Shown: positions 11,255-63,462, numbered from the stretch's first letter. The stretch: 64,000 nucleotides of DNA from Acetobacteraceae bacterium (GCA_025352375.1 JANXTL010000028.1:1125-65124), one strand, 5' to 3'. Made by a program: numbers and translations. The notes: generated by a model from the sequence alone, not told the origin.

Positions 11255-12030
11255 TGCAGCCTCCGCTTGCCATCCCCCGCGTTGCGCTGATCACCGGCGG
11301 GGCCGTGCGGCTGGGCCGCGCCATTGGGCTGGCGCTGGCGGGCGCGGGGTTCGACATCGCGATCCATTGCAACGCCAGTACCGCGCCAGCCGAGGCGACA
11401 GCCGCCGAGATCCAGGCGCTCGGGCGCCGCGCCGTTATCCTCCAGGCGGATCTGGCGGTGGAAGCCGAAACCGCGGCGCTGGTCGGGCGGGCTCAGGCAG
11501 CGTTGGGGCCGGTCGGTGTGCTGGTAAACAACGCCAGCACGTTCGAGCGCGACGAGTGGGACGACACGTCTCGAGAATCCTGGGATTTCCACATGGAACC
11601 CAATCTGCGTGCGCCTTTCGTGCTGATGCAGCACTTTGCCAAAGCACTGCCGGACACCGCCGAGGGCGCGATCGTCAACATGATCGATCAGCGGGTGTGG
11701 TCGATTACGCCGCATTTCATGTCCTATACGGTGTCGAAGGCGGGGCTTTGGGCGCTGACGCAGAGTATGGCGCTGGCGTTGGCTCCGCGCATCCGGGTCA
11801 ATGGGATCGGCCCCGGACCGGCGCTGCCGAACAGCCGCCAGACGCAGGCGCAGTTCGACCGCCAGGCGGCCTCCATGCCTTTGGGACGCGGCACCACGCC
11901 GGAAGAAGTGGGCCAGGCCGCGTTAGCCATCCTGTCGCTGCCGGCGATGACCGGGCAGATGATCGCCCTCGACGGGGGCCAGCACATGCAGTGGGGGTCG
12001 GTACGCAACGCTCCCTCGCTGGAGGAATAG
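11255..12030 (+). CDS. SDR family oxidoreductase (pteridine/dihydromonapterin reductase-like, folB-linked)
   Basis: TGGAVRLG Rossmann motif, NNAS and a YxxxK (YTVSK) catalytic motif. It lies immediately upstream of folB, as in many alphaproteobacteria. Start chosen at the internal ATG 11255. Confidence 0.8.
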
Positions 12031-12033
12031 TCC

Positions 12034-12438
12034 GTGCCCTCGTCCATCGCCAACCGAACCGCCGGCATCCGCCATGTGTTCCTGCGCGACATGGTGCTGC
12101 CCGCGAGCATTGGCGTCTACGCGCATGAGCACAAGGCGATGCAGCGGGTGCGGATCAACGTCGATTTGGGTGTGGAAGACACGCAGGAAGCAATTGGGCG
12201 GGACGAACTACCCAGAGTGGTCGACTACGAAAAAATCGCCAACGCCGTTCGTGCCATCATAGCGTCCGGCCATGTACGGTTGGCGGAGACTCTGGCCGAA
12301 CGCATCGCGGAGGCCTGCCTTTCCGACAAGCGTGTGAGGCTGGCGCGAATCCGGGTGGAAAAGCTTGACATCTTCGCGGACGCGGCATCGGCCGGAGTCG
12401 AAATCGAGCGACACCAGCGGAATTTATCCACCAGCTGA
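12034..12438 (+). CDS. folB: Dihydroneopterin aldolase
   Basis: 134 aa with a GTG start. ...VFLRDMVLPASIGVYAHEHKAMQRVRINVDL... and ...VRLAETLAERIAE... match the FolB family pattern. Confidence 0.8.
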   Translation: MPSSIANRTAGIRHVFLRDMVLPASIGVYAHEHKAMQRVRINVDLGVEDTQEAIGRDELPRVVDYEKIANAVRAIIASGHVRLAETLAERIAEACLSDKRVRLARIRVEKLDIFADAASAGVEIERHQRNLSTS

Positions 12439-12612
12439 ACGAGCAGGCCAATGATTACCGTATCTTACGCTCTTGTGTTAATTTTCGGACATGAAATTTC
12501 CGTAAATAGTTTAAAATCAATGAGTTAAAGTTTGCCTATAAATGTGACAAAGGTTAAAAGAACCAGCAATAGCGCGGCTGACGGGCTGTTGCTCAGAACT
12601 TTCCCCACATAC

Positions 12613-26991: not shown

Positions 26992-28619
26992 CCCTCGACC
27001 CGATCACCGTCGAAGTCACCCGCCACAAGCTGGAGGGCATCGCCAATGAGATGCAGTCCACCCTGCTGCGCAGCTCTTTTTCGCCGATTGTCAAAGAAGG
27101 CCTGGACGCCTCGGCCGGCCTGTTCACCGCGGACGGGCAAACCCTGGCGCAAGCCTGTGCGATCCCGATCCATCTGGCGACGCTGATCCCGGTGCTGCAA
27201 AAAATCATCGAAACCTTCCCGCCCGCCACGATGCACCCCGAGGATACGTTCCTGCTGAACGATCCCTACACCGGCGGCACGCATCTGCCCGATATCGCCC
27301 TGGTGCAGCCTATCGTCGTTGACGGGAAACTGGTCGCATTCAGTGCCGCGATGACACACCACCAGGACATCGGCGGCATGTCGGCCGGTTCCGTGCCCAC
27401 CAACGCCACCGAAATCTACCAGGAGGGTCTGCGCCTCCCGCCGCTGAAATTCCGCGATGCTGGCAAGCTGAACGAAACGCTGGTGGCGATTATCCGCCAG
27501 AACGTGCGCATTCCCGACACCGTGATGGGCGATATCAACGCGCAGCTTGCCGCGTGCAGCATCGGGGTGCGGCGGATAACGGAGCTGACCCGGAAGTTCG
27601 GTCACGACGCCCTGACAGGCCTGTTCTCCGAACTGCTCGACCGTTCCGAAATCATGACCCGCAAGGCACTGGCGAAAATCCCCCAAGGCACGTACCGGTA
27701 TGTCGATTACCTCGACAATGACGGCGTCGATCTCGACAAACCCATAAGGATCGAGGTAGCCGTCACCGTCGGTCAATCCGGCATCCACATCGATTTCACC
27801 GGCACCTCGCCCCAGGTGCGCGGCCCGATGAATTGCGTACCGTCCGGATCGCTCGCCGCCGCCTGCTTCGCCATTCGCGCGCTGACCGACCCCGCGATCC
27901 CCACCAACGCCGGCTGCTTCCGCCCGATTTCGTTGCACCTGCCGGAGGGTAGTCTGGTGAACCCGGTGGAGCCCGCGCCGGTCAACGCCCGCACATCGAC
28001 CATCAAGCGCATCACCGGCTGTATCGTCTCCGCACTGGCGAACATCCTGCCCGATCGGATCCCCGCCCCCTCGGCCGGCGAAATGGCTTTGGTCGCGTTC
28101 GGCGGGCGGCGGCCAACGGGAGAAAATTTCGTCACCGGCGATCTGATCGCCAGCGGTAGCGGTGCCTCGGCCACCGGCGACGGCGTCGACGTGATCGAAA
28201 CCGACGCCACCAACTGCATGAATCTCCCGGCCGAGGCGATGGAAATGGAAACCCCCATCCGCCTGCATCGCGTCGCGCTGCGGCCCGGTTCCGGCGGCGA
28301 CGGCGCCTTCCGTGGCGGCCTCGGCACCGAACGGGAATACGAAGTGCTCACCGACAACGTGACGTTCACGCATCGGGGCGAGCGCCATTTCTCCGCCGCT
28401 CGTGGCATATTCGGCGGCGGCGACGGGGCATGCGGGGAATCCACCATCCTTCGCACCGACGGCACCACCGAAACCATCCCGTCGAAAATCGTCGCGCGGT
28501 TGATGAAGGGGGATCGGGTCATCGTTCGCACCGCCGGCGGCGCTGGGTATGGCGATCCCACGCAACGGACCGCAGCCATGCGCCGGTCCGATGTCGCCGA
28601 TGGCAAGGTCCCTGCCTAG
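26988..28619 (+). CDS. Hydantoinase B/oxoprolinase family protein
   Basis: The start MTLDPITVEVTRHKLEGIANEM overlaps the hyuA-type stop (ATGA). The typical LNDPY.GGTHLPD motif is present. The track ORF 25989.. is an over-extension. Confidence 0.9.
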   Translation: MTLDPITVEVTRHKLEGIANEMQSTLLRSSFSPIVKEGLDASAGLFTADGQTLAQACAIPIHLATLIPVLQKIIETFPPATMHPEDTFLLNDPYTGGTHLPDIALVQPIVVDGKLVAFSAAMTHHQDIGGMSAGSVPTNATEIYQEGLRLPPLKFRDAGKLNETLVAIIRQNVRIPDTVMGDINAQLAACSIGVRRITELTRKFGHDALTGLFSELLDRSEIMTRKALAKIPQGTYRYVDYLDNDGVDLDKPIRIEVAVTVGQSGIHIDFTGTSPQVRGPMNCVPSGSLAAACFAIRALTDPAIPTNAGCFRPISLHLPEGSLVNPVEPAPVNARTSTIKRITGCIVSALANILPDRIPAPSAGEMALVAFGGRRPTGENFVTGDLIASGSGASATGDGVDVIETDATNCMNLPAEAMEMETPIRLHRVALRPGSGGDGAFRGGLGTEREYEVLTDNVTFTHRGERHFSAARGIFGGGDGACGESTILRTDGTTETIPSKIVARLMKGDRVIVRTAGGAGYGDPTQRTAAMRRSDVADGKVPA

Positions 28620-28731
28620 ACCATGATCGTTTGAGGTCGCACGCGATCTCGGCGTTGGATCATGGTCTAAGCCTTCGTTTGAGAGGGTGATTCACGCCCG
28701 AGGTTGAAGTCAACCTCAAGCGATCACGCTC
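28619..28731. mobile_element. 113-bp MITE, copy 1 (TA target-site duplication; imperfect 11-bp terminal inverted repeats)
   Basis: The termini are GACCATGATCG ... CGATCACGCTC, flanked by TA at 28617-18 and 28732-33. It differs at 3 of 113 nt from the reverse complement of 58990-59102. Internal hairpins are GACCATGATC/GATCATGGTC and GAGGTTGA/TCAACCTC. Confidence 0.85.
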
Positions 28732-50895: not shown

Positions 50896-50970
50896 GGGCG
50901 CGTAGCTCAGCGGGAGAGCACCTCCCTGACACGGAGGGGGTCACAGGTTCAATCCCTGTCGCGCCCACCA
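50896..50970 (+). tRNA. tRNA-Val (anticodon GAC), CCA encoded
   Basis: It folds by hand into a cloverleaf: acceptor GGGCGCG/CGCGCCC, D arm GCUC-AGCGGGA-GAGC, anticodon arm CCUCC-CUGACAC-GGAGG, T arm ACAGG-UUCAAUC-CCUGU, and discriminator A + CCA. Confidence 0.95.

Positions 50971-51473: not shown

Positions 51474-51477
<4 letters not shown>
51259..51477 (-). CDS. Ribbon-helix-helix domain protein (fumC-linked)
   Basis: MSGLVKRSFSLAGHRTSVALEPEFWDALAAMAA... matches the RHH_4-type pattern. Its start overlaps the fumC stop (ATGA). Confidence 0.7.
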
Positions 51478-52880
<1,403 letters not shown>

Positions 52881-52991: not shown

Positions 52992-54137
52992 ATGGTCCAG
53001 TCCGGTCGTGTTGCCTTCGGCAAAATGGAAGAGGTCCTGTTCGGCGTGTCCGCTGCCGACGCGGTGGCCGAGCAAGCCCGAAAGCTGGGCGCGACCAGGG
53101 TATTCCTGATGGTCAGCGGCACGCTAAACCGCGAAACGCCGGAGATCGCGCGGGTGCGGGCGGCGCTGGGCAATCTATGCGCCGGGGTGTTCGACCGCAT
53201 GCCGGCCCATACTCCGCGTCAGGCCGTGGTGGCGGCGGCTAACCAGGCGCGGGAGGCTGGTGCCGACCTAATCGTCACCATCGGCGGCGGCTCGATCACC
53301 GATGGTGCCAAGACGGTGCAACTGTGCCTCGCCAACGACATCCGCACCGCCGAGAGGTTGGACGCCATCCGCCCGGGCCGGGTGTTTGCAGCGCCGACCG
53401 TGCGCCAGATCAGCGTGCCCACGACCCTGTCCGCTGGGGAGTTCAGCGCTTTGGCCGGCGTGACCGACGAGCGGACCCGGGTAAAAGAGTTGTTCGCGCA
53501 TCCATCGATCATCCCCCAGACCGTGATCCTCGACCCCGCGATGACCGTGCATACGCCGGAGTGGCTTTTTCTCTCAACCGGGATCCGCGCTGTCGATCAC
53601 TGCGTGGAGGGGTTTTGTTCGTTGGAGGCCAATCCATATGCCGACGCTCAGGCGATACGGGGGCTAACGCTGCTGACACGCGGGCTGGCGGCGGTGAAGG
53701 CCGATCCGTCGAACATACAAGCGCGGCTGGATTGCCAGATCGGGTCGTGGCTCTCGATGGGGCCGCTGGCGAGCGGTGTCCCAATGGGGGCCAGCCACGG
53801 CATCGGCTACGTGCTCGGCGCCGTGCACGACATCCCGCACGGGCACACGTCCTGCATCATGCTGCCGGCGGTGATGCGGTGGAACAAATCCGCGAACGCG
53901 GATCGGCAGGCGGAGATTGCCGCTGCGATGGGGCATCCGGGCAAGGAAGCCGGGGACGTGCTGGACGCGTTCATCGGCGGGCTGGGGATGCCGCGGAGCT
54001 TGTCGGCTGTAGGTGTTGGGGAAACCGCGTTCGCGCGTATTTCCGAGCAGGCGATGGGGACGCCCTGGATCCCGCGCAATCCGCGGAAGATCGCGGGGCC
54101 GGCGGAGGTTCGGGAGATTCTGAGGTTGGCGGGTTAG
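52992..54137 (+). CDS. Iron-containing alcohol dehydrogenase family protein (maleylacetate reductase-like), intact copy
   Basis: ATG at 52992 follows GGGAGGAAG. The GGGS.TD.AK NAD-binding motif and H-x-x-x-H metal ligands (HGIGYVLGAVHDIPHGH) are present. The track ORF start at 52071 is an antisense-of-fumC artefact. Confidence 0.85.
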   Translation: MVQSGRVAFGKMEEVLFGVSAADAVAEQARKLGATRVFLMVSGTLNRETPEIARVRAALGNLCAGVFDRMPAHTPRQAVVAAANQAREAGADLIVTIGGGSITDGAKTVQLCLANDIRTAERLDAIRPGRVFAAPTVRQISVPTTLSAGEFSALAGVTDERTRVKELFAHPSIIPQTVILDPAMTVHTPEWLFLSTGIRAVDHCVEGFCSLEANPYADAQAIRGLTLLTRGLAAVKADPSNIQARLDCQIGSWLSMGPLASGVPMGASHGIGYVLGAVHDIPHGHTSCIMLPAVMRWNKSANADRQAEIAAAMGHPGKEAGDVLDAFIGGLGMPRSLSAVGVGETAFARISEQAMGTPWIPRNPRKIAGPAEVREILRLAG

Positions 54138-54377
54138 GCTTGGTTCTGTTGCCTATGCCGTGCCCCGGCGAAGGCGGGGGCGACCATTCCGCTGGCCACA
54201 CTGACCGCGACGCGGGTCGTCAACCTGCATGATCCGATGAACAGCGACCACACGGCGGCGGGACCTTGCGGGTACGGGGACCGATAAGGCGTGAGGTGGC
54301 CCCATCCGTTGGACAGGAATCGGGGTGAGCTAAAAGAGACTCGCACCCATTGCGTGCCCCCAAACCCGCTCGGGGGG

Positions 54378-54511
54378 TTAAAAAATTCAAATCAGCGAAT
54401 TTTTTAATTCGTGGTTGAATCCCCAAGGAGAAATATCGTAACCGGACCGAAAAATTTTTTTCAGAATCTAAATGGATTTTGCTTGACAACGGGTCGTAAT
54501 TATCGATAACG
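54378..54511 (+). promoter_or_regulatory. AT-rich regulatory region of the island operon: 11-bp perfect inverted repeat, A5T7 tract, and TTGACA-N16-GATAAC promoter candidate
   Basis: TTAAAAAATTC (54378-54388) pairs with GAATTTTTTAA (54397-54407). GAAAAATTTTTTTC lies at 54449-54462, and TTGACA at 54483-54488. This is a sharp local AT-rich patch in a high-GC genome. Confidence 0.4.
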
Positions 54512-54541
54512 ATGGGCGACATCTTCAAGGTGAGGTATCCA

Positions 54542-54931
54542 ATGGCCGTGCAGACTTACCTCATTCACCTGCACGACGCGCTTCAACAGGACGATGCGGC
54601 GCGGGATGAGTTGGCGGACCTGACGATCCACACGGGTGGCTTCGTGCTGATGGCGACCGATGCGGGCTCGCTGATCGCCGCCTTAGATGATCGGCATCTG
54701 CCGGCCTTCCGGCAGCATCGTGCCGTCGCATTCTGCGGCGCGGTCAGGCTCGATCCGAACGGCGCGGCGGCGACGCGGCTGCAACAGTTGTTCGCGGCCA
54801 ACATTGCGGCCCAATTGGCGCACCGGCTACAGGCGACCTCCGCATCTGCTGATCGCGCAGGTCCGCGATACCGGCCGCTTTGTTGGCACTTGCCCGATCC
54901 CGACGGCGCCCGTGCCGCAACCAGCACTTAA
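54542..54931 (+). CDS. Island protein P0, hypothetical (129 aa)
   Basis: ATG at 54542 follows AGGTGAGG. MAVQTYLIHLHDALQQDDAARDELADLTIHTGGFVLMATDAGSLIAALDD... No recognised family. First gene of the operon. Confidence 0.55.
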   Translation: MAVQTYLIHLHDALQQDDAARDELADLTIHTGGFVLMATDAGSLIAALDDRHLPAFRQHRAVAFCGAVRLDPNGAAATRLQQLFAANIAAQLAHRLQATSASADRAGPRYRPLCWHLPDPDGARAATST

Positions 54932-54951
54932 ACCCGCCAAGGAGTAGTCAC

Positions 54952-55644
54952 ATGAGCATCGGCCAGGAGCTTTTGGACGTTCCGTTTCCCGAGATGATCT
55001 TCAAGATGGCCAACGCCATCGCCCAGGGTCAGCGCCGGTTGGACAAGACGTCAATCGACACCGCGCGCATGCTGGCGAAGGCGCGGGTATCGGTGATCCC
55101 GGAGATCTTCGAGATCGTCGAAAAGAAGAAAATTTCCGACGCGTTGGAGGCCGGTGCCGTGCTCCCGCTCGCTCCGCCGGCGGTGCCCGGCGCACCGGTA
55201 CCGGCCGTGCCCCCGGTCCCCGTCGCCGATCAGTTCACGATCGCGGTCCGCAGCGAGAGCGGCAAAGCGATCGACATGAGTCTGATGCAGGCCGGCTTAC
55301 TGCCGACATTCTATCAGTTCACGGAGTCAATCATTGAAGTGAAAATCTCTATTAGCCACCGTAGCTCGTTCCAGAGCGAATTCGAAGTGGGCGCCAGCTT
55401 GGAAGTGGCGACTGAAGCGGAGGCTCACGGTGGCTTGTTCGGCTTCGGTGGTTCGGCTTCGGTTTCCACCACCTTCGCATCGCACGTGAACTACAAGAGC
55501 TCTTCCAGCTATTCGTACTCGGCCGAGGGGTCGAGCCTTTTGCGCACCACGCTCAAGCCGTTGCCGCCTCCGGCGCGGCTGATCCCGCGCATCGTCACGA
55601 TTGATGCGACGGTCAACCCGATCAAGGTGACGTTCAATGGCTGA
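54952..55644 (+). CDS. Island protein P1, paralogue family member (230 aa)
   Basis: AAGGAG lies 7 nt upstream, and GC3 is high. It shares three sequence blocks with P3 and P4. It carries an extra Pro/Ala-rich insert and a Gly/Ser-rich insert. Confidence 0.8.
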   Translation: MSIGQELLDVPFPEMIFKMANAIAQGQRRLDKTSIDTARMLAKARVSVIPEIFEIVEKKKISDALEAGAVLPLAPPAVPGAPVPAVPPVPVADQFTIAVRSESGKAIDMSLMQAGLLPTFYQFTESIIEVKISISHRSSFQSEFEVGASLEVATEAEAHGGLFGFGGSASVSTTFASHVNYKSSSSYSYSAEGSSLLRTTLKPLPPPARLIPRIVTIDATVNPIKVTFNG

Positions 55645-55655
55645 TCGGCCGCGCC

Positions 55656-57227
55656 ATGGCTTCGCCGCATAATCCCGAATCCTGGCGTGAGAAGAGGCGC
55701 CAGGAGAGCCGAGCCGAGGCCCGGCTGCGGCAAGTGCGGCCGCCGCTTCGTGGGGATGGTCAGGCGTTATCCCGGCCGGGCACGCCTGACCGCCGGCAGC
55801 CTAAAATGCCGCCCCTTGCGTCGGCGGCGCACAGCGCTCCGCGGCCGCCCCTTCTGATGCCGAACCTGCGCGTCAGACCGTCTGGTGCAATACCCCTGCC
55901 GGCACGGGCCGCTATGCGTGCCGGGCCCCCGCTGGAGCGCGCGCTGTCTCGACCAACTGTCGCACCCAGCCAGCGGCCGCCGCCGCGCATCGCCCAGAAG
56001 CCGGAGACCAAGCCGCCTGTCGCCCGCACGAAGCGGCCGATGCAAGCCGCCGGGCCCAAAACGATCGCAATCCAGGATCGCCCGAAGCCGCCTCGACCAA
56101 CTGTCGCACCCAGCCAGCGACCGCCGCCGCGCATCGTCCAGAAACCGGAGACCAAGCCGCTTGTCGCCCGCACGAAGCGGCCGACGCAAGCTGCCGGGCC
56201 CAAAATGATCGCAACCCAGGATCGCCCAAAGCCGCCTCGGCCCAATCGACCCGCGTTGGGTCCTGCGAATTTGCATGCGACCATCGCGCGTCCGCTGTCG
56301 CCACCCCAACCGCACAAGCCCCGACCCGATTTGTCTCTACGTCATACGGGCGTGACGACCACGCCACCGCTCCCGCGCGCGGGGGGCACGCCCAGACCGC
56401 GGGACTTGCAAGCGGTGCGCGACAATCGGCCACCGCCGGTACGCCGGACTGGCCGCGTCGGTGCCCTTGCCAAGCCGCGCGTCCGCGAAGGCGAGTTGTC
56501 CGCGCATCTTCCCTGGCTGCGCGCCGCCGGCCCAACGTTGGAGACGGCGTCCGGCCGACGCGTGATTCTGCATGGCCTGACCGAGGTTTTGCCCGCCACC
56601 GGCTCAGCACTCGCGTTGCTCCACCGCGCGGCGCTGGGCGGGGACGAGGGCAACGCCAGCATATGGCTCGACCTCGAAGCCGGAACGGACCATCTGGGGG
56701 GGGCTCTCGATGACGTTATCGCGCAACACGCGGCTCACGGCGTTTATACGATCCTGCACGGCGGACCCACCCATCGGGCCGCGCACCGTTATGCCGATGA
56801 GCCGGCCGTCCTGTTTTCCCTACCCACTGCCCCGCACGAGCGCGTCACGGCGACGCTGGATGTTGTCCGCGCGGCCCATCCCCGTGCGGTGGTGTTGATC
56901 CCGGCCGGCACAGCGCCAGCCGCGCACCATCGGCCCGGCGCTGTGCTGCGCTGGGATTTGGGAGAAGTCGGCGGCGGGGCAATGGCCGCCGTCGAGCGGA
57001 TGCACCACTGTCCCGTGATGCTCGTCTGGCATCCCGCGCGCGGCAGCCCGATGGCCAACGAACGAATAATTCAGGCCGCTGGGCGGGGCGGCATTGGCTG
57101 GATCGCTCACGATCCTGAACCCTGGATGCAACATCGCTACGGCGTGCCGGAACTCAGTCGGGCCGCGCACGCCGTACTGCGAGGCCTGATCTTGAGTGAC
57201 CATTTCGCCACCCCTCACGCCGCTTGA
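55656..57227 (+). CDS. Island protein P2: basic/proline-rich repeat protein with a degenerate glycoside hydrolase (GH5/TIM-barrel)-like C-terminal domain
   Basis: 523 aa. The N-terminal ~270 aa are Pro/Arg/Lys-rich with two 48-aa repeats, and GC3 supports this frame. The C-terminal ~250 aa follow the GH5 block order, but the catalytic NEP and nucleophile Glu are not conserved. The start codon is uncertain. Confidence 0.6.
   Translation: MASPHNPESWREKRRQESRAEARLRQVRPPLRGDGQALSRPGTPDRRQPKMPPLASAAHSAPRPPLLMPNLRVRPSGAIPLPARAAMRAGPPLERALSRPTVAPSQRPPPRIAQKPETKPPVARTKRPMQAAGPKTIAIQDRPKPPRPTVAPSQRPPPRIVQKPETKPLVARTKRPTQAAGPKMIATQDRPKPPRPNRPALGPANLHATIARPLSPPQPHKPRPDLSLRHTGVTTTPPLPRAGGTPRPRDLQAVRDNRPPPVRRTGRVGALAKPRVREGELSAHLPWLRAAGPTLETASGRRVILHGLTEVLPATGSALALLHRAALGGDEGNASIWLDLEAGTDHLGGALDDVIAQHAAHGVYTILHGGPTHRAAHRYADEPAVLFSLPTAPHERVTATLDVVRAAHPRAVVLIPAGTAPAAHHRPGAVLRWDLGEVGGGAMAAVERMHHCPVMLVWHPARGSPMANERIIQAAGRGGIGWIAHDPEPWMQHRYGVPELSRAAHAVLRGLILSDHFATPHAA
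55948..56235 (+). repeat. Tandem 144-bp coding repeat, 2 copies
   Basis: CTCGACCAACTGTCGCACCCAGCCAGCG... starts at 55948 and again at 56092. The copies differ by a handful of substitutions and encode RPTVAPSQRPPPRI.QKPETKP.VARTKRP.QAAGPK.IA.QDRPKPP. Confidence 0.9.
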
Positions 57228-57245
57228 ACATTAAGGAACATCGCA

Positions 57246-57830
57246 ATGTCGATCGGCCAGGAGCTTCTGGACATCCCGTTCGCGGATATGGTGCGCAACC
57301 TCGCCGCCGCGGTCGCCGAGGGGCAGTTGTCGCTGGATCGGGCGTCCATCGAGACGCTGCGCTTCCTCGCCGACGATGCCAACGGCATCGCGATCATCCC
57401 CGAAATCGTCGAGACGATCGTGCCCAGCACGATGTCCACCTCGATCAACGGCGTTGCGACCGACATCGCCACCGTCACCGTCAGGTCGCAACCAGCGGCG
57501 GCGGTAAAAATGTCGCTGCTTCAGGCCGGCATCCTACCCACCTTCTATCAGTTCACCGAGGCCAGCATCGAGGTGAAACTGTCGATTACGATGAAGCGCA
57601 CCGGCGATGCCGAGACGGCAGGCAGGCCCGGCTTCGCAGGCCGCGGCGTGATGGTCCACGGGTCGACCGTAAACTACCGGTCAGCCAATACCTACTCCTA
57701 CACCGCCGAGGGATCGAGCGTGTTGCGCATCACCATGCGTCCGGTACCGCCGCCGGTGCGGCTGCTCCCCGACATCGTCAGCGTCAATGCGACCGTAACG
57801 CCGCCCATCATCAATCGCACGCCGCGCTGA
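57246..57830 (+). CDS. Island protein P3, paralogue family member (194 aa)
   Basis: AAGGAA lies upstream. It starts MSIGQELLDIPF like P1, and shares LLQAGILPTFYQFTE..IEVK and YSYTAEGSSVLRITMRPVPPP blocks. Confidence 0.8.
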   Translation: MSIGQELLDIPFADMVRNLAAAVAEGQLSLDRASIETLRFLADDANGIAIIPEIVETIVPSTMSTSINGVATDIATVTVRSQPAAAVKMSLLQAGILPTFYQFTEASIEVKLSITMKRTGDAETAGRPGFAGRGVMVHGSTVNYRSANTYSYTAEGSSVLRITMRPVPPPVRLLPDIVSVNATVTPPIINRTPR

Positions 57831-57842
57831 GGGACATCGACC

Positions 57843-58217
57843 ATGGCCAACGAAGTCGATTTCTCGGAAATCCTGATCACCCCGGTCGCGACTATGATTC
57901 GCGAAATCGCGGCTGGCGTCGCTGCCGCTCAGCGCGAACTGGACCAGGCCAGCCTGCAATCCCAGGCTGACCTGCACGACAAGTTCCCCGAACTGGAACA
58001 GGCCGGCTACCAGGTGACGTGGTACCAGATTCCCGAGGTGCGGGCCGAGATGCGGATGGCCGTGCATCTGGAGCGGCAAACCCCTCAAAGCCCGCTGCGA
58101 CTATACGCGACGCCGTTCAACGCGAAGTACCGCAACGCCATGAACTTCACCGCCGACGGATCGAGCACGCTGACACTGCGCATCGTACCGGTGCCACCCA
58201 TCACGCCGGTGAAGTGA
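57843..58217 (+). CDS. Island protein P4, short divergent paralogue (124 aa)
   Basis: GAGGGA lies upstream. It retains degenerate versions of all three blocks (…AAGVAAAQRELDQASL…, LEQAGYQVTWYQIPEVRAEMRMAV, FTADGSSTLTLRIVPVPP). Confidence 0.7.
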   Translation: MANEVDFSEILITPVATMIREIAAGVAAAQRELDQASLQSQADLHDKFPELEQAGYQVTWYQIPEVRAEMRMAVHLERQTPQSPLRLYATPFNAKYRNAMNFTADGSSTLTLRIVPVPPITPVK

Positions 58218-58233
58218 GCAGGAGAGCCACACC

Positions 58234-58740
58234 ATGCCGATCAGCATAAATTTCAACCCTGGCAAGATCAGCGACGTGCAACTGCGCGATCCCGTGTTCG
58301 TGAAGACGCAATTCGACACGGCCGTCCGCGCGGTCGCCGAACGCGATCAGGAGTTGGTCCTGGTCAATGCGCGCCAATTGGCTGCTGCCACCGAATTGCT
58401 AACGGTGAAGCAGGCGCTCGCTACGGAATCCTTGCGCGCTGCGGGTCTGGAAGATCAGATCAAAAGGTTTCAGACCGACGCCCCGAAGATCGCCATCCAG
58501 GAGTTGGTCACCCAGTTCAAGTCCGACGTCGACAAGATCAACCGCGATGTGCTTGCCAACCCGACGCTTGCGGGAATGCTGGTCGACAGCGTCGAGGTGG
58601 AGGTCAAGGGCGGCATCGACGTGTCTCAAGGCGTGCGGTTCTCGCAACTGCCGCATGGCGAGCTAACCGGCGCCAGCGCCAGCACCTTCCGCTTTAACCT
58701 CAAGCCAAGTGCGGTGGTGCGGATCGTCGACGATCCGTAG
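58234..58740 (+). CDS. Island protein P5, coiled-coil protein with a C-terminal module related to P1/P3/P4 (168 aa)
   Basis: AGGAGA lies upstream. The central heptad-like helix spans about residues 30-110. The C-terminal VDSVEVEVKGGI ... STFRFNLKPSAVV echoes the IEVK and LR.T.KP blocks of the paralogues. Confidence 0.7.
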   Translation: MPISINFNPGKISDVQLRDPVFVKTQFDTAVRAVAERDQELVLVNARQLAAATELLTVKQALATESLRAAGLEDQIKRFQTDAPKIAIQELVTQFKSDVDKINRDVLANPTLAGMLVDSVEVEVKGGIDVSQGVRFSQLPHGELTGASASTFRFNLKPSAVVRIVDDP

Positions 58741-58836
58741 CGCCAGAGCAAACACCGTCCGAAAATTTAACGAAATGCGATCGTTGGCATACCGGATCGC
58801 AATCGTCGGAGGGTCGTGCCAATGATCGATGACGTC

Positions 58837-59577
58837 CCATGCCCGGTTATGTTGAACCCGGCGATCACCCCGCACAGGTCGAAGTGGCTGTCCCCGTCCA
58901 CCGGTATCCGGGCCGTCGATGACTGCGTGGAGGGGTTTTGTTCATTGGAAGCCAACCCCTACGCCGATGCCCCGGCATTGCGCGGGCTAGAGCGTGATCG
59001 CCTGAGGTTGACTTCAACCTCGGGCGTGAATCACCCTCTCAAACAAAGGCTTAGACCATGATCCAATGCCGAGATCGCGTGCGACCTCAAACGATCATGG
59101 TCTAACGCTGCTGACGCGCGGGCTGGCGACGGTGAAGGCCGATCCGTCGAACATACAAGCGCGGCTGGATTGCCAGATCGGGTCGTGGCTCTCGATGGGG
59201 CCGCTGGCGAGCGGCGTTCCCATGGGGGCCAGCCACACGGCATAGGCTTCGTGCTCGGCGCCGTGCACGACATCCCGCACGGGCACACGTCGTGCATCGT
59301 GCTGCCGGCGGTGATGCGGTGGAACAAATCCGCGAATGCCAACCGGCAGGCGGAGGTCGCCGCCGCCATGGGGCACCCGGGGGAGGAAGCCGGCGACGTG
59401 CTGGACGCGTTCATCGGCGGGCTGGGGATGCCTCGGAGCTTGTCGGCTGTTGGCGTGGGCGAGGGCGCGTTTGGGCGGATCTCCGAGCAGGCGATGGGGA
59501 CGCCCTGGATCCCGCGCAATCCGCGGAAGATCGCGGGGCCGGCGGAGGTTCGGGAGATTCTGAGGTTGGCGGGTTAG
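58837..59577 (+). pseudogene. Displaced, decayed 3' portion of the Fe-ADH/maleylacetate reductase-like gene (copy B)
   Basis: It is collinear with 53514-54137 and lacks the 5' ~60% of the gene. It is split by the 113-bp MITE. A 2-nt insertion (AC, about 59237) creates an in-frame TAG at 59243-59245. The last 97 nt are identical to copy A. Confidence 0.9.
58990..59102. mobile_element. 113-bp MITE, copy 2 (opposite orientation to copy 1), with TA target-site duplication
   Basis: It is flanked by TA at 58988-89 and 59103-04. The empty site GGGC-TA-ACGCTG is preserved in the intact paralogue at about 53666-53677. Confidence 0.9.
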
Positions 59578-60608
59578 GGCGGCGACAACCGGCTGCTCGC
59601 CCAGTCCGCGGCCTCGGCGACCACCAGGTCGGGATCGGTGGTTAACTGCCGAGCGACCGGGAGCAGCGAGGGGTCGGCGGAATTGCCGATGGCGATCAGG
59701 ACGTTGCGCACGAAGCGGTTGCGGCCGATGCGTTTGATGGGGGAGCCGGTGAATGTCCGGCGGAAGGAGGCGTCGTCCAGGGTGGCCAGTTCTTGCAGCC
59801 TTGGCGCCGTCAGGTCATCCCGCGGTCGCAGCTTTTCGTGCGGTGTGGGTTTCGCAAAACGATTCCACGGGCACACCGCGAGGCAGTCGTCGCAACCGTA
59901 GATGCGGTTGCCCATCAGGGGGCGCAGGTCCAGTGGGATCGGCCCCTGGTGCTCGATGGTTAGGTAGGAAATGCAGCGGGTCGCGTCCAGCCGATATGGG
60001 GCCGGAAAGGCGTCGGTGGGGCAGATTTTTAGGCATCGTGTGCAGGTGCCGCAGCGGTCCTGGTGCGGGGTGTCGGGGGTCAGTTCCAGCGTGGTATAAA
60101 TTTCGCCAAGAAATAACCACGACCCGTGCGTTCGGGAAACCAAATTGGTGTGCTTGCCCTGCCAGCCGAGCCCGGCTTTCTCCGCCAGCGGTTTTTCCAT
60201 CACTGGCGCGGTGTCGACGAAGACTTTGACCGCTGGCCCGAAGCGCGAGACCACGAATTGGGCGAGGTGCTTCAGCTTGCCTTTCACCAAATCGTGGTAG
60301 TCGCGGTTGCGGGCGTAGACCGAGACGGTGCCTCGGTCGGGTTGGCTTAGCGACGCCAAGGGGTCGTCGGACGGCGCGTAGGACAGGCCGAGGGCGATGA
60401 CACTCTTAGCCTCCGCCCACAACGCTTTGGGGTGGGATCGTTGCTCGGCGCGGTCGGCGAGCCAGCCCATGTCGCCGTGCTGCCCGGCGGCGAGGAAGGC
60501 GCCGAGCCGGGTGCGGGCCTCGGGGGCGAGGTCGGCGGTGGCGAAGCCGATGGCGTCGAAGCCTAGGGAGAGGGCCTTGTCGCGGATCAGGGGGCGGGGG
60601 TCGGTCAT
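59574..60608 (-). CDS. queG: Epoxyqueuosine reductase
   Basis: From [22 protein letters not shown]... It has two 4Fe-4S motifs ([21 protein letters not shown]) and a HEAT-like C-terminus. Its stop overlaps the pseudogene stop (TTAG). Confidence 0.9.
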
Positions 60609-60785
60609 GCGGGGGGTGTTGTCGCATTGGGGACGGGGTAGGTCGAGGTAGTGGCCGAGGACGAACCGCGTTCCACCCAACCCTTGCCACGGTGCCGAGC
60701 GGTATGGGAATGAGTGCGGGACAACCTGCGTTGATCTGTTATGTTCTCTGCATGTTCTTCACCTGGACCCACGAGGATGATGCGG

Positions 60786-61541
60786 ATGTCGAAGATCGAG
60801 TGGACGGACGTTACATGGAACCCTGTCGCCGGCTGTACGGTGGCGACCGCGGGCTGCACGAACTGCTATGCCATGCGGATGGCCGCTCGGCTCGAGGCGA
60901 TGGGCACCGCGAAGTATCAGGGCTTAACCCGAAAGAGCGGCGAACGATACGTCTGGACGGGCACAGTCGTGCAGGACGAGAAAGCGCTTGCTGCACCGCT
61001 AGCTTGGCGTAAGCCGCGCACGGTGTTCGTCAACAGTATGTCCGACCTCTTCCACCCGTCGGTGGAGCTGGAGTTCATCGCCAAAGTCTGGGAAGTCATG
61101 AAGGCGACCCCACACCACACCTACCAGATACTGACGAAGCGTCCAGAGCGGATGCGCGAGGTTCTGTCGCGTTCGGATTTTCATGTTCTGCCGAACGTGT
61201 GGATCGGCACCAGCGTCGAGGACAGTGCGGTCCTCGATCGTATCGACGAACTACGTCGTACACCAGCCGCAGTCCGATTCGTTTCCTTCGAGCCGTTGAT
61301 TGGCAGCATCGCGGGCGCCGACTTGCAGAACATTGACTGGGCGATCATCGGCGGAGAGAGTGGACCAAGATCGCGCATAATGCTGCCCGAATGGGTGTCA
61401 GAGATTGAGGAGCTATGCCGCGGCGTTGGCGCAGCCTTCTTCTTCAAGCAGTGGGGCGGCCGTAACAAGAAAGCCGCGGGCCGCACATTAAACGGCCGTA
61501 TCTATGATGAAATGCCTACCTCCCAGCGTATTTCTTTATGA
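60786..61541 (+). CDS. DUF5131 (phage Gp37/Gp68) family three-Cys-motif protein
   Basis: MSKIEWTDVTWNPVAGCTVATAGCTNCYA has the motif C17-x6-C24-x2-C27. The family-typical SMSDLFH and WAIIGGESGP blocks are present. GC is visibly lower than in the flanks. Confidence 0.85.
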   Translation: MSKIEWTDVTWNPVAGCTVATAGCTNCYAMRMAARLEAMGTAKYQGLTRKSGERYVWTGTVVQDEKALAAPLAWRKPRTVFVNSMSDLFHPSVELEFIAKVWEVMKATPHHTYQILTKRPERMREVLSRSDFHVLPNVWIGTSVEDSAVLDRIDELRRTPAAVRFVSFEPLIGSIAGADLQNIDWAIIGGESGPRSRIMLPEWVSEIEELCRGVGAAFFFKQWGGRNKKAAGRTLNGRIYDEMPTSQRISL

Positions 61542-62454
61542 CGGAAGTTACCCCCTTCTTGATGAGGGCAATTGCCTTTACGCTTGCGCTATTCGACATG
61601 CAGAACAGCGAGAAAATCTTCGAGGTCCGATCGTTCAGCAGCGGCAGCGGATCCGAAACGTACGAAAATATCGTCTTCAGCCGATCCTGCGCGTAACACT
61701 CGATTTGATCGACGTTAAATCTCTTGCTGCCTGTAGTGACGGGCTGATCGAACAGCCCCCCCTGGACAAGACGGACATTATAAATGTCGGTGCGCCAAGC
61801 GGTCGAGCCAAAAACTTCGTCGAGCGCGTGCTGCTTGTTCTCGTCGACCTTCGCGAAGTCGCCCGCCAGCTGTCGGTTCACGGCGCTTGTCGGGAAAAGA
61901 TACCAAACGTCCACAGCGCGGGTCTCCGCTAGCAGGTTCAACGTTTCCCACTTCACAGACATTCCAAATGGATCGAGGAAGACAATTGCACGATGCGAGC
62001 CGCGTCCATCGCGCTGCTTGGACCATGGCGGTTCGCCGAATATTTCCCTCAGCTTGGCGTTTGCTTCACCACGGAACGGTCTGATATTCCGGTTTGGGTG
62101 TGCTGCCGCGATCTCTTCCAAACGACGAAACCGGTCTCGGTTTTCCTCGACGAAGACGAGGCGTTTGAAATGTGGATCGACGTCAAGTGCGCGCAGCACC
62201 GACCCAGCAAGATCGACCGTCTCTTCCCCCAAGGGCTCACCCTCGAAAAGGCCACCGGTGGCGCGATCGATACGGCGGGACCCGCTACCCGCAAACGCAT
62301 CTATGTACCAGAGTTCAAACGGCTGCTGCGGTGTTGGCTTGTTCTTCAGAGCCCCCGTGTAGAATTTGAGATAGTCGTGGACAGCATCGAGCTTGACCTC
62401 GGTCCAAGCACCTCCGAACCGATGCCCCTGATCTGAATCTGCTGACCTTGCCAT
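61516..62454 (-). CDS. tcmP: Three-Cys-motif partner protein TcmP
   Basis: From MARSADSDQGHRFGGAWTEVKLDAVHDYLKFY... with YIDAFAGSG, FLDPFG and WYLFP blocks, as in TIGR-defined TcmP (recollection). It is convergent with the DUF5131 gene and overlaps it by 26 nt. Confidence 0.8.
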   Translation of the reverse strand: MARSADSDQGHRFGGAWTEVKLDAVHDYLKFYTGALKNKPTPQQPFELWYIDAFAGSGSRRIDRATGGLFEGEPLGEETVDLAGSVLRALDVDPHFKRLVFVEENRDRFRRLEEIAAAHPNRNIRPFRGEANAKLREIFGEPPWSKQRDGRGSHRAIVFLDPFGMSVKWETLNLLAETRAVDVWYLFPTSAVNRQLAGDFAKVDENKQHALDEVFGSTAWRTDIYNVRLVQGGLFDQPVTTGSKRFNVDQIECYAQDRLKTIFSYVSDPLPLLNDRTSKIFSLFCMSNSASVKAIALIKKGVTSVIKKYAGR

Positions 62455-62703
62455 GTGTTTATCACTCTGCTTTTGAGCATCTGCGGTTTGGATGCATCGT
62501 TCGACGGTCGGACAAGGACCGCTGCACCTTATGTCCCGTTTCGATAGCATAGCGCGAATAGTTTTTCAACCATCGGTAGCATGAAGCGCCCGGACAGCCA
62601 AAGGTCCGATCAAACACCCAGCCCGTCCCCCTCCCGCTTGTTGCCTCCGGCAAGCGAACGTCGAATACTGCGTCCCGCGACCAACACCAATGGAGGAAGA
62701 CCC

Positions 62704-63462
62704 ATGTCGTTCTACCGAGGCATGACCTGTTCGAACGTCACCATCGCCGGTCACGGCGGTTCCAAGATCGATGCTTACGTGGCCAAACCCGAAGGCAAAG
62801 GCCCCTTCCCCGGCGTGGTGCTGATCCACCATTTGCCGGGCTGGAGCGAGCTGTACATCGAAACTACCCGCCGCTTCGCCCACCACGGCTACATGGCCAT
62901 CTGCGCCAACCTGTATCAGCGCGAGGGCGGCGGCAGCGACGGCAACCCCGACGACGTGGCCGCCGCCGTGCGCGCCGAGGGCGGCGTCTCCGACGCTCAG
63001 ATGGTCGGCGATACCGAGGCCGCTGTGAAATGGATGCGCGCGCAGACCGATCACAACGGCAAGGTCGGGCTGATCGGATCGTGCTCCGGCGGGCGGCACG
63101 CGTTCATCTACGGGTGCCAGAAGCACGACGTCGATGCGATCGTTGAGCAGTGGGGCGGCGGCGTGGTCATGGGTCCGGCAGACCTGAACGACAAAAAGCC
63201 AGTCGCCCCGATCGACATGACGGCCGGGCTTGCGTGCCCGCTGCTCGGCCTGTTCGGCAACGACGACCGCGCGCCGAGCCCCGAGCAGGTGGATCAGCAT
63301 GAGGCCGCGCTGAAGAAGGCCGGCAAGACGTATGAGTTCCACCGTTACGACGGCGCCGGCCACGGCTTCTTCTACTGGCACCGCCCACTGTACCGGCCGG
63401 AGCAAGCAATGGACGGCTGGAACAAAATCTGGGCGTTCTTCGGCAAGTATCTGGCGAAGTAA
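62704..63462 (+). CDS. Dienelactone hydrolase family protein
   Basis: ATG follows GGAGGAAG. The nucleophile motif G-S-C-S-G-G is present, with C-terminal ...YDGAGHGF. Confidence 0.85.
   Translation: MSFYRGMTCSNVTIAGHGGSKIDAYVAKPEGKGPFPGVVLIHHLPGWSELYIETTRRFAHHGYMAICANLYQREGGGSDGNPDDVAAAVRAEGGVSDAQMVGDTEAAVKWMRAQTDHNGKVGLIGSCSGGRHAFIYGCQKHDVDAIVEQWGGGVVMGPADLNDKKPVAPIDMTAGLACPLLGLFGNDDRAPSPEQVDQHEAALKKAGKTYEFHRYDGAGHGFFYWHRPLYRPEQAMDGWNKIWAFFGKYLAK

Follow-up and report, generated by a model that had tools for sequence, protein, structure and literature searches.

How does an operon without mobility genes come to stand between an intact gene and a second, truncated copy of that gene's own 3' end? 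The question is raised by a 64,000-nt stretch of DNA from an Acetobacteraceae bacterium (GCA_025352375.1, JANXTL010000028.1:1125-65124; the window hereafter), in which the end of adh, encoding an Fe-dependent alcohol dehydrogenase, is found on both sides of a 4.7-kb insert carrying a six-gene operon, o1-o6 (54140-58836; Table 1). An earlier note on this DNA had read the arrangement as an element bringing a surrogate 3' end, like the integrative islands at gene or tRNA 3' ends, and gave import of a variant locus from a relative by homologous recombination as the alternative. We find that the footprint is real and not a new kind of element, and that general homologous recombination accounts for it better than would an enzyme specific to a mobile element.

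Table 1. Features of the adh locus, its insert, and the second MITE copy, in coordinates of the window
Feature	Coordinates	Strand	Remarks
MITE, second copy	28617..28731	-	inverted; 97% identity over 115 nt
tRNA-Val(GAC)	50896..50970	+	conserved upstream backbone marker, not the insertion site
fumC (class II fumarase)	51474..52880	-	Lyase_1, FumaraseC_C; divergent from adh
adh, intact Fe-dependent alcohol dehydrogenase	52992..54137	+	381 aa; Pfam Fe-ADH and ADH_Fe_C
Copy A of repeat	53514..54139	+	last ~40% of adh, stop codon, 1-2 nt past the stop
Left noncoding part of insert	54140..54511	.	372 nt; GC falls to 52-56%; this species only
o1, small protein	54512..54931	+	129-139 aa; opens conserved module
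o2	54952..55644	+	230 aa; paralog of o4 and o5 (alignment)
o3	55656..57227	+	523 aa; Pro-rich N-terminal half; C-terminal ~230 aa predicted GH5-like
o4	57246..57830	+	194 aa; founding member for tracing the family
o5	57843..58217	+	124 aa; short paralog of o2 and o4
o6	58234..58740	+	168 aa; closes cassette; closer relatives only
Right noncoding part of insert	58741..58836	.	100% conserved in same-species contigs; inferred illegitimate joint at its end (58837 +/- 15)
Copy B, 5' segment	58837..58989	+	74-78% identity to copy A; near-neutral evolution on its own branch
MITE and duplicated TA	58990..59104	+	113 nt; strain-specific, recent insertion
Copy B, 3' segment	59105..59579	+	92% identity to copy A; two identical blocks, ~110 and ~100 nt
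queG (epoxyqueuosine reductase)	59574..60680	-	TIGR00276, 461 bits; convergent with adh', stops overlap

The two repeats and their surroundings

The direct duplication of adh 53514-54139 at 58837-59579, as described in the earlier note, was recovered both by alignment (53480-54160 against 58800-59600) and by a repeat finder (families D1, D3, and D4). The length bookkeeping given there is exact: copy A has 626 nt and copy B 743 nt, the 117-nt gap being made up of a 113-nt MITE, a duplicated TA, and a 2-nt insertion. The claimed gradient from a diverged start to an identical end was also found, identity being 74-78% across 53514-53666, 96% over the ~130 nt that follow, 87-91% mid-repeat, and 100% over the ~100 nt from 54039 through the stop codon and 1-2 nt beyond; both repeats are mosaics, with identity ranging from 74 to 100% along their length. 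The full 3' end of adh stands before the insert, so the gene is intact as had been claimed, and copy B is truncated at the 5' end, interrupted by the MITE, and frameshifted by the 2-nt insertion (near 59235) to a TAG at 59243-45. The overlap of the adh' TAG with the TAA of convergent queG, in TTAG at 59574-59577, is likewise present. The earlier note had considered this tight junction ancestral-looking, but the corresponding spacer is 84 nt in L001 and ~70 nt in L004, two sister species.

The two edges of the repeat differ in kind. At one, homology runs precisely to the stop codon of adh, whereas at the other it starts at ~58837 +/- 15, inside the gene, with no significant similarity to adh in the 96 nt upstream. 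The repeat is therefore bounded by one homologous and one illegitimate junction.

The MITE within copy B (58990-59102) has imperfect terminal inverted repeats and no ORF and is enclosed by TA at 58988-89 and 59103-04; we recognize the 113-nt insertion as a MITE because the window contains a second, inverted copy. These features liken it to the TA-targeting MITEs (nonautonomous IS630/Tc1-mariner-like derivatives), the TA target being the sole basis for the family assignment. The site is free of the element in copy A and in all 11 same-species contigs.

Upstream of the repeat, the tRNA-Val gene similarly precedes X-RHH-adh in L001-L004, and no repeat of its 3' end was found anywhere within the 64-kb window. 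The structure of the locus varies among relatives, both in the content downstream of adh and in the presence of fumC, which occurs here and in L003 and is missing from between RHH and adh in L001, L002, and L004. The genes flanking the insert are fumC, adh, queG, and DUF5131. The adh protein has 93% amino acid identity to that of L001. An empty locus, for which the earlier note had suggested looking, is seen in L001 and L004, where the order is tRNA-Val-X-RHH-adh-queG with one adh and the insert absent. In other species, o1-o6 were near adh at none of 80 loci, and none of 80 species had two adh copies at one locus. Within the species, we found the insert together with both repeats in 11 metagenome contigs, all independent and from different samples. 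As these span both repeats and share the same architecture, the insertion is fixed in the species and the assembly error that the earlier note had named as a possible refutation is excluded.

Divergence and gene conversion of the adh tails

The differences between copies A and B are mainly synonymous (pairwise dN/dS 0.14, 0.09, and 0.12), and the outgroups side about equally with A and with B. The two tails thus appear to have diverged largely as functional genes, and import from a relative by homologous recombination, the alternative of the earlier note, gives the better fit. Polarized changes in the 5' segment (135 nt) comprised 6 synonymous and 12 nonsynonymous changes on the B branch and 12 and 1, respectively, on the A branch, while the B-branch changes in the 3' block were 8 synonymous and 4 nonsynonymous; the mosaicism of adh in this clade weakens any polarization. 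The first 150 nt of B carry ~13% divergence on the B branch, a near-neutral decay that points to an old event. The closest relationships change along the repeat: the 5' segment of B has 84.6% identity to L007 versus 78% to its own copy A, and over the 3' 470 nt, A and B are each other's nearest relatives. Mosaicism and gene conversion mask which of the two tails is foreign.

Recombination between the repeats is ongoing. The 11 contigs show strain-level SNPs and two copy-B haplotypes, and in 3 of them (L086, L179, and L180) the 5' segment of copy B is B-type at 39 of 39 sites, whereas its 3' segment is A-type at 33-34 of 36, having been overwritten by A through gene conversion. The conversion tract stops within the repeat, short of queG, and a private SNP of L180 is found in both copies. 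The earlier statement that copy B is dead does not hold for every strain: in these three contigs, conversion by copy A restores an open frame of 212 aa.

Origin of the insertion

The explanation toward which we lean, with modest confidence, is an old, integrase-independent and homology-driven additive insertion that displaced the 3' end of adh, by homology-facilitated illegitimate recombination (HFIR) or in the Campbell manner, with pseudogene decay and gene conversion following later. The event would postdate the separation of this lineage from its L001-like sister, the incoming DNA consisting of an adh 3' part, the 372-nt spacer, and the o1-o6 operon, and would have created two junctions, a homologous exchange within adh and an illegitimate joint at ~58837. 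Two routes could lead there: HFIR, possibly between sister chromatids, or a Campbell-type single crossover with a circularized fragment. HFIR usually entails the loss of recipient DNA, not its duplication, which counts against this route here. Either would be expected to leave an intact adh, then the cargo, and then the displaced, 5'-truncated adh tail against queG, and this is the order met at the locus. The truncated tail behaves as a pseudogene: near-neutral drift is seen in its outer 150 nt, its inner 470 nt have been overwritten repeatedly by the functional copy, with one such allele segregating now, and it has gained a frameshifting 2-nt insertion and, unique to this strain, the MITE. 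Further points count against an additive insertion. The donor layout, a single adh followed by the cassette, was absent from 80 genome loci, 80 metagenome loci, and the contigs looked up, the closest cassette, that of Plastoroseomonas (75% for o4), being at another locus, and the divergence between A and B is uneven (25%, 0%, 14%, and 0%), so that conversion after the insertion or prior mosaicism must be invoked.

The mechanism has precedents in HFIR and C-terminal displacement (PMC5361080) and in interchromatid integration that generates duplications (PMC3784515). For rhs, CDI, and T6SS effector-immunity loci, Kirchberger et al. 2017 (PMC5361080) and, as cited there, Jackson et al. 2009 proposed C-terminal displacement by one-sided homologous recombination. 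The adh locus shares with those systems the order of gene, cargo, and truncated end, the lack of an integrase, the combination of a homologous and an illegitimate junction, and the empty sites. It differs in that the adh tails are orthologous and encode the same enzyme domain, whereas those of rhs, CDI, and T6SS are alternative toxin tips, and in that the six genes of the cargo operon have no relation to the target and the repeats are still converting. Campbell-type integration and transformation-induced merodiploidy (PMC3784515) similarly give direct repeats that represent the shared homology flanking the insert, need only the general recombination machinery, and produce a duplication that is unstable or convertible; the repeats here are 0.6 kb versus 100-900 kb, the duplication is old and fixed versus a transient laboratory product, and neither a donor nor a circular intermediate is known. 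An additive insertion would make the locus a clean natural case of an operon without mobility genes entering the chromosome by host recombination alone, with all stages visible, from the empty site and the displaced tail to the gene-conversion polymorphism and the decay by frameshift and MITE.

The same repeat could have formed by a single illegitimate event if two complete adh genes, a native one beside queG and another that was incoming or paralogous, had once flanked the cassette and a deletion had then taken ~173 codons from the start of the second. The repeat would in that case be what is left of a tandem gene pair, not the footprint of an insertion. The low dN/dS of the tails, expected if both were functional genes through most of their divergence, and the structural variability of the locus among relatives (fumC and the content downstream of adh) would agree with such a history. 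We nevertheless regard it as unlikely: a second adh copy was seen at none of the 80 species' loci, no trace of adh exists upstream of ~58837, and the arrival of the cassette with a second adh would still need its own explanation.

A site-specific integrative island, with attP inside the adh 3' fragment and a recombinase acting in trans or since lost, would also account for the empty site in relatives, and the known integrase islands at tRNA or gene 3' ends resemble the locus in having an element-borne 3' end that keeps the target intact and direct repeats at both borders. The cassette, however, shows no such habit in other genomes. In Rubrivivax and Giesbergeria (both Burkholderiales), as in Plastoroseomonas, its six genes are colinear and stand at unrelated sites, it occupies a further unrelated site in Sphaerotilus, and it occurs in many metagenomic lineages; at those other sites we found no integrase, transposase, flanking repeats, or adh fragment. 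A search of viral contigs gave 0 matches and megaplasmids 1 match, and the six insert ORFs had no match in Pfam, NCBIfam, PHROGs, or PADLOC, which upholds the claimed absence of a recombinase from the 4.7-kb insert; the immediate neighbors have none either. Furthermore, the repeats are 0.6 kb long, mosaic, and converting, in contrast with the short, exact core of an att site. The cassette does not move by itself, the analogy with islands carrying a surrogate 3' end is not supported, and we consider an island improbable; the case cautions that a duplication of a gene 3' end is not automatically an att site.

A duplication of the 626-nt adh tail in situ, accompanying insertion of the cassette (e.g., by repair synthesis at a staggered break), with later divergence, would explain why A and B are closest to each other over the 3' 470 nt and identical over the terminal ~100 nt. 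A copy dead from birth is not expected to show mainly synonymous differences evenly split between A and B. The 5' segment of B is closer to L007 than to copy A, and if one duplication dated both branches, the 12 synonymous changes in 135 nt of A would be excessive in comparison with B's neutral branch. This origin is already disfavored and we give it little credence. Finally, a chimeric or collapsed repeat, for which the general repeat risk in metagenome-assembled genomes (MAGs) is the only argument, is refuted by the independent contigs, their strain SNPs, and the two copy-B haplotypes and has practically no probability left.

Genes of the cassette

Three of the operon's genes encode paralogs from an unnamed helix+beta family; the others specify a small protein, a coiled-coil protein, and a Pro-rich protein that has a GH5-like domain. 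The small protein, o1, has 48-57% amino acid identity to its counterparts in Burkholderiales and metagenome loci and comes first in the module every time, and o2 has 73% identity to those of Rubrivivax and Giesbergeria. Our search with o4 found 796 homologs, and its family forms ~500 clusters (counted at 50% identity, E<=0.001), all labeled hypothetical. No Pfam match was obtained for o2, o4, o5, or ten diverse family representatives. The name DUF2589 for o4 was rejected: it is the UniRef label of a single homolog, P0009, and the Pfam model is unmatched. The AF2 model of o4 (pLDDT 65) has a helix at the N terminus followed by beta strands, and no relative was found in the PDB.

The o3 gene is intact in 9 strains and contains a 144-nt tandem repeat at 55948-56239, in its Pro-rich half. 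Its C-terminal domain is predicted to be a divergent GH5-like (beta/alpha) barrel: in a profile-profile comparison it aligns with the GH5 domains encoded by syntenic genes of distant clusters (hhalign 99.6% probability, E 1.8e-23), and the best Foldseek matches are GH5 enzymes, for a query model of low confidence (pLDDT 52). In comparison with Pfam GH5 (PF00150), against which o3 gave nothing at E<=0.01, the domain keeps the acid/base "E-P" motif, the E of its "DEP" aligning with the acid/base position, but is far shorter. The nucleophile glutamate position is not conserved, the o3 group having a residue other than Glu aligned there, and the domain may thus be noncatalytic or altered.

Judging by gene neighborhood, the cassette is probably envelope- or glycan-related. 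A more far-reaching reading, which we consider doubtful, is that o1-o6 represent an undescribed, widespread envelope or glycan apparatus that spreads among Alpha- and Betaproteobacteria without a recombinase of its own, using fragments of neighboring housekeeping genes as homology arms, and that the adh repeats are the scar of this; the apparatus would then comprise the three paralogous helix+beta proteins and the GH5-like protein, with GT4, NAGPA-like, and M23 enzymes added in its distant versions. The conserved, unannotated module flagged here is open to experimental study.

Repeat architecture and the adh locus in relatives

As we aligned the 3' tail of the intact Fe-ADH gene (adh; copy A) with its truncated recurrence next to queG (adh'; copy B), all numerical statements of the earlier note, from the alignment and the repeat coordinates to the length difference and the overlap of the adh' and queG stops as TTAG at 59574-59577, were found to hold. 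Copy B is 117 nt longer than copy A, owing to a 113-nt MITE with its TA duplication and a 2-nt insertion near 59235 that leads to a TAG at 59243. The graded similarity described in that note was likewise recovered: identity starts at 74-78% (first ~153 nt), rises to 100% for some ~110 nt except for strain-private SNPs, drops to about 86% at 53777-54038, and is again 100% from 54039 to the stop codon inclusive. A tblastn HSP suggesting that copy B reaches further upstream, to adh codon ~151, was discarded, the similarity not being significant at the nucleotide level.

Features of the adh locus, its inserted cassette and related gene clusters
Feature	Sequence	Coordinates	Remarks
adh, Fe-ADH gene	window	52992-54137	Pfam Fe-ADH and ADH_Fe_C
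Copy A, last 626 nt of adh	window	53514-54139	alignment and repeat finder
Copy B, recurrence of adh tail	window	58837-59579	alignment and repeat finder
MITE with TA duplication	window	58990-59102	113 nt; inside copy B
MITE, second copy	window	28617-28731	97% identical, inverted; TA-targeting
o3 tandem repeat	window	55948-56239	144 nt, 2 copies, 93% matches; 48-aa Pro-rich units
Cassette	Rubrivivax		between Zn-ADH gene and DUF1398
Cassette	Giesbergeria		between mobB and large Peptidase_C1-like gene
Cassette	metagenomic Burkholderiales-like contigs		several
Cassette	Plastoroseomonas arctica		before UPF0093-ppx-ppk; at least o3-o6 seen before contig end
Distant o1/o4/o5 cluster	contig L120	6082-17480	
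Distant o1/o4/o5 cluster	contig L149	689-10240	
Distant o1/o4/o5 cluster	contig L162	2388-12208	
Distant o1/o4/o5 cluster	contig L124		
Distant o1/o4/o5 cluster	contig L133		

The host is a Rhodopila-like member of the Acetobacteraceae, and its closest adh is found in the MAG contig L001 (93% aa). Relatives keep the backbone tRNA-Val - X - RHH - [fumC] - adh - queG. The proposed comparison with an empty locus was informative: in two sister species (L001 and L004), a single adh lies directly convergent with queG and the cassette is absent. Their adh-queG spacers measure 84 nt and about 70 nt, respectively, and the overlapping adh'/queG stops, taken in the earlier note for an ancestral-looking junction, are thus not ancestral. 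No homologs of the insert genes were found near adh at 80 adh loci of other species. The order fumC-adh-six ORFs-adh'-queG is shared by 11 independent metagenome contigs of the window's own species (L083-L088, L177-L181), which excludes the previously raised possibility of an assembly artefact and indicates that the insert is fixed. The adh and queG proteins of the window, searched as exact sequences for an empty allele in the population, were not on record. The MITE is present in 0 of these 11 contigs, and its insertion is therefore recent and strain specific. It sits (58988-59104 vs. 53665-53666) exactly at the border of the decayed and homogenized parts of copy B. A causal role as a barrier at this boundary was rejected, as the repeat contains nine TA sites, giving a chance of coincidence of about 1 in 9, and MITE-free strains have the same boundary. 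Two further candidates were dismissed: intergenic spacers as a test of the native tail, being unconserved even between L001 and L004, and tRNA-Val as an island anchor, being conserved in all relatives with its 3' end not repeated.

The adh locus varies in other ways. The fumC gene (51474-52880) lies between RHH and adh in the window and in the contig L003 and is cleanly absent from L001 (8360-8639), L002 and L004, where the RHH-adh gap is about 70-85 nt, making it a second presence/absence polymorphism. Just beyond queG, at 60741-62550, lie a DUF5131 gene (phage Gp37/Gp68-like) and, convergent with and overlapping it, a TcmP gene ("three-Cys-motif partner," TIGR04474); NCBIfam describes the two as a mobile pair, and the pair is also found in same-species contigs. 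In a more distant relative, the contig L069 (adh 77%), adh is directly followed by a gene (11670-12458) homologous at 85% aa to the window's ORF at 62581-63462 (+), suggesting that variable inserts at the adh locus also include queG, DUF5131 and TcmP. Within queG, the window has AGGCG at 59768-59772 vs. CTTTA in 9/9 same-species contigs compared, a strain-private multinucleotide change.

Divergence and exchange between the two adh tails

Purifying selection acted on the two adh tails through most of their divergence. The A/B dN/dS is 0.14 for the 5' segment, where dS is about 1, and 0.09-0.12 for the 3' segment, where dS is 0.12-0.27, values equal to those of functional-ortholog pairs, and at the sites of difference the outgroups side with A and B about equally often. 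Polarizing the changes with outgroups placed 12 synonymous and 1 nonsynonymous changes of the 5' segment on the A branch, and 6 and 12, respectively, on the B branch, the latter being near-neutral at about 13% divergence; for the 3' block, the counts were 12 and 4 (A) and 8 and 4 (B). The 5' segment of copy B is 84.6% identical to the contig L007 vs. 78% to its own copy A, and in the 3' 470 nt the closest relative of each copy is the other one, followed by L001.

Copy B occurs as two haplotypes in the population. It is B-type throughout in 8 of the 11 contigs; the other three (L086, L179 and L180) have B-type bases at 39/39 5'-segment sites and A-type bases at 33-34/36 3'-segment sites. In this A-type 3' haplotype, the frameshift is gone, leaving one open 212-aa frame, and the exchanged tract stops within the repeat without entering queG. 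L180 carries a private SNP in both its copies. In L085 and L178, a small recombinant or foreign patch lies within copy A at the equivalents of 53889-53916; its alleles match L001 or copy B, evidence that copy A, too, is reached by exchange from outside or between the copies. The data thus show directly that the repeats undergo gene conversion with each other and recombine with alleles from outside, and the graded similarity is explained by conversion, which renews the inner part as the outer edge decays. In copy B, the outer 150 nt show the neutral-type decay of about 13%, which points to an old insertion, consistent with its fixation in the species and its absence from L001 and L004.

Origin of the insertion

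The insert is bordered on one side by the natural end of the adh homology and on the other by a gene-internal point past which the homology does not extend. Together with the divergence under purifying selection and the lack of site specificity and of a recombinase, this pattern speaks for an additive insertion by recombination rather than for site-specific integration. We therefore favor the former, in line with the homologous-recombination import that the earlier note had given as its alternative; its preferred mechanism, an integrative-island-like insertion, is not supported, and the integrase/att model was rejected, with recombinase and short core both lacking and the cassette showing no site specificity. 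The additive insertion could have occurred via homology-facilitated illegitimate recombination, perhaps between sister chromatids, or via a Campbell-type crossover of a circularized fragment; transformation is known to drive interchromatid integration that creates duplications (PMC3784515). The donor, the foreign tail and the precise topology are inferred steps of this account. It is unlikely that two complete adh genes once stood here as a pair, one of them later being cut back by a deletion. An integrase acting in trans and an in situ duplication of the adh tail fit less well than that, and we consider the one very improbable and the other equally so. The window's locus fits the "3'-end displacement" pattern put forward for rhs, CDI and T6SS effector loci (PMC5361080, where Jackson et al. 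2009 is cited for such loci) and is a further instance of an already known type of recombination footprint. The more interesting lead is the conserved, uncharacterized operon carried by the insertion.

The cassette genes and their other contexts

The insert contains six codirectional genes (o1-o6) with no matches in Pfam, NCBIfam, PHROGs or PADLOC. Of these, o2, o4 and o5 are paralogs sharing an N-terminal helix, a "QAGxLPTFYQFTE" center and an "AEGSS...PVPPP" tail. One half of o3 is Pro-rich with a 144-nt tandem repeat, whose copy number is constant across nine strains checked. Its full-length homolog search was dominated by Pro-rich words, and a search with the C-terminal domain found two proteins only. 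This domain resembles the GH5 domains of same-position genes in distant clusters (profile-profile homology, 99.6% probability, E 1.8e-23), and GH5 enzymes were also the best Foldseek matches of its low-confidence AF2 model (pLDDT 52). The o4 model was similarly poor (pLDDT 65), and Foldseek found no structural relatives or PDB neighbor with it. Rfam and promoter/terminator scans of the region gave the tRNA only. Just upstream of o1, at 54200-54600, the GC content is 52-56% vs. about 65% in the surroundings, and the stretch includes a TTGACA-containing AT-rich segment. The cassette may have its own promoter region here, but a consensus scan of the + strand found no promoter-like site.

The genes o1-o6 are colinear at several other places, including Rubrivivax, Giesbergeria and metagenomic Burkholderiales-like contigs, and none of these other contexts examined contained an integrase, transposase, flanking direct repeat or adh fragment. 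The o4 family has no members on viral contigs and almost none on plasmids. A widespread core consists of o1, o5 and two o4-like genes and counts 500 clusters at 50% identity (E<=0.001); its Sphaerotilus versions are labeled "hypothetical protein" in RefSeq. In distant loci, the core belongs to long, codirectional clusters that also encode between one and three GH5 proteins, a GT4 glycosyltransferase, an NAGPA-like protein, an M23 peptidase and coiled-coil proteins. We rejected a contractile-injection-system reading of these clusters, for which Pfam gives GT4, GH5 and M23 instead. The gene neighborhood suggests a possible envelope or glycan role. Some o4-family proteins, such as P0248 and P0251, are fused to Laminin_G_3 lectin domains.
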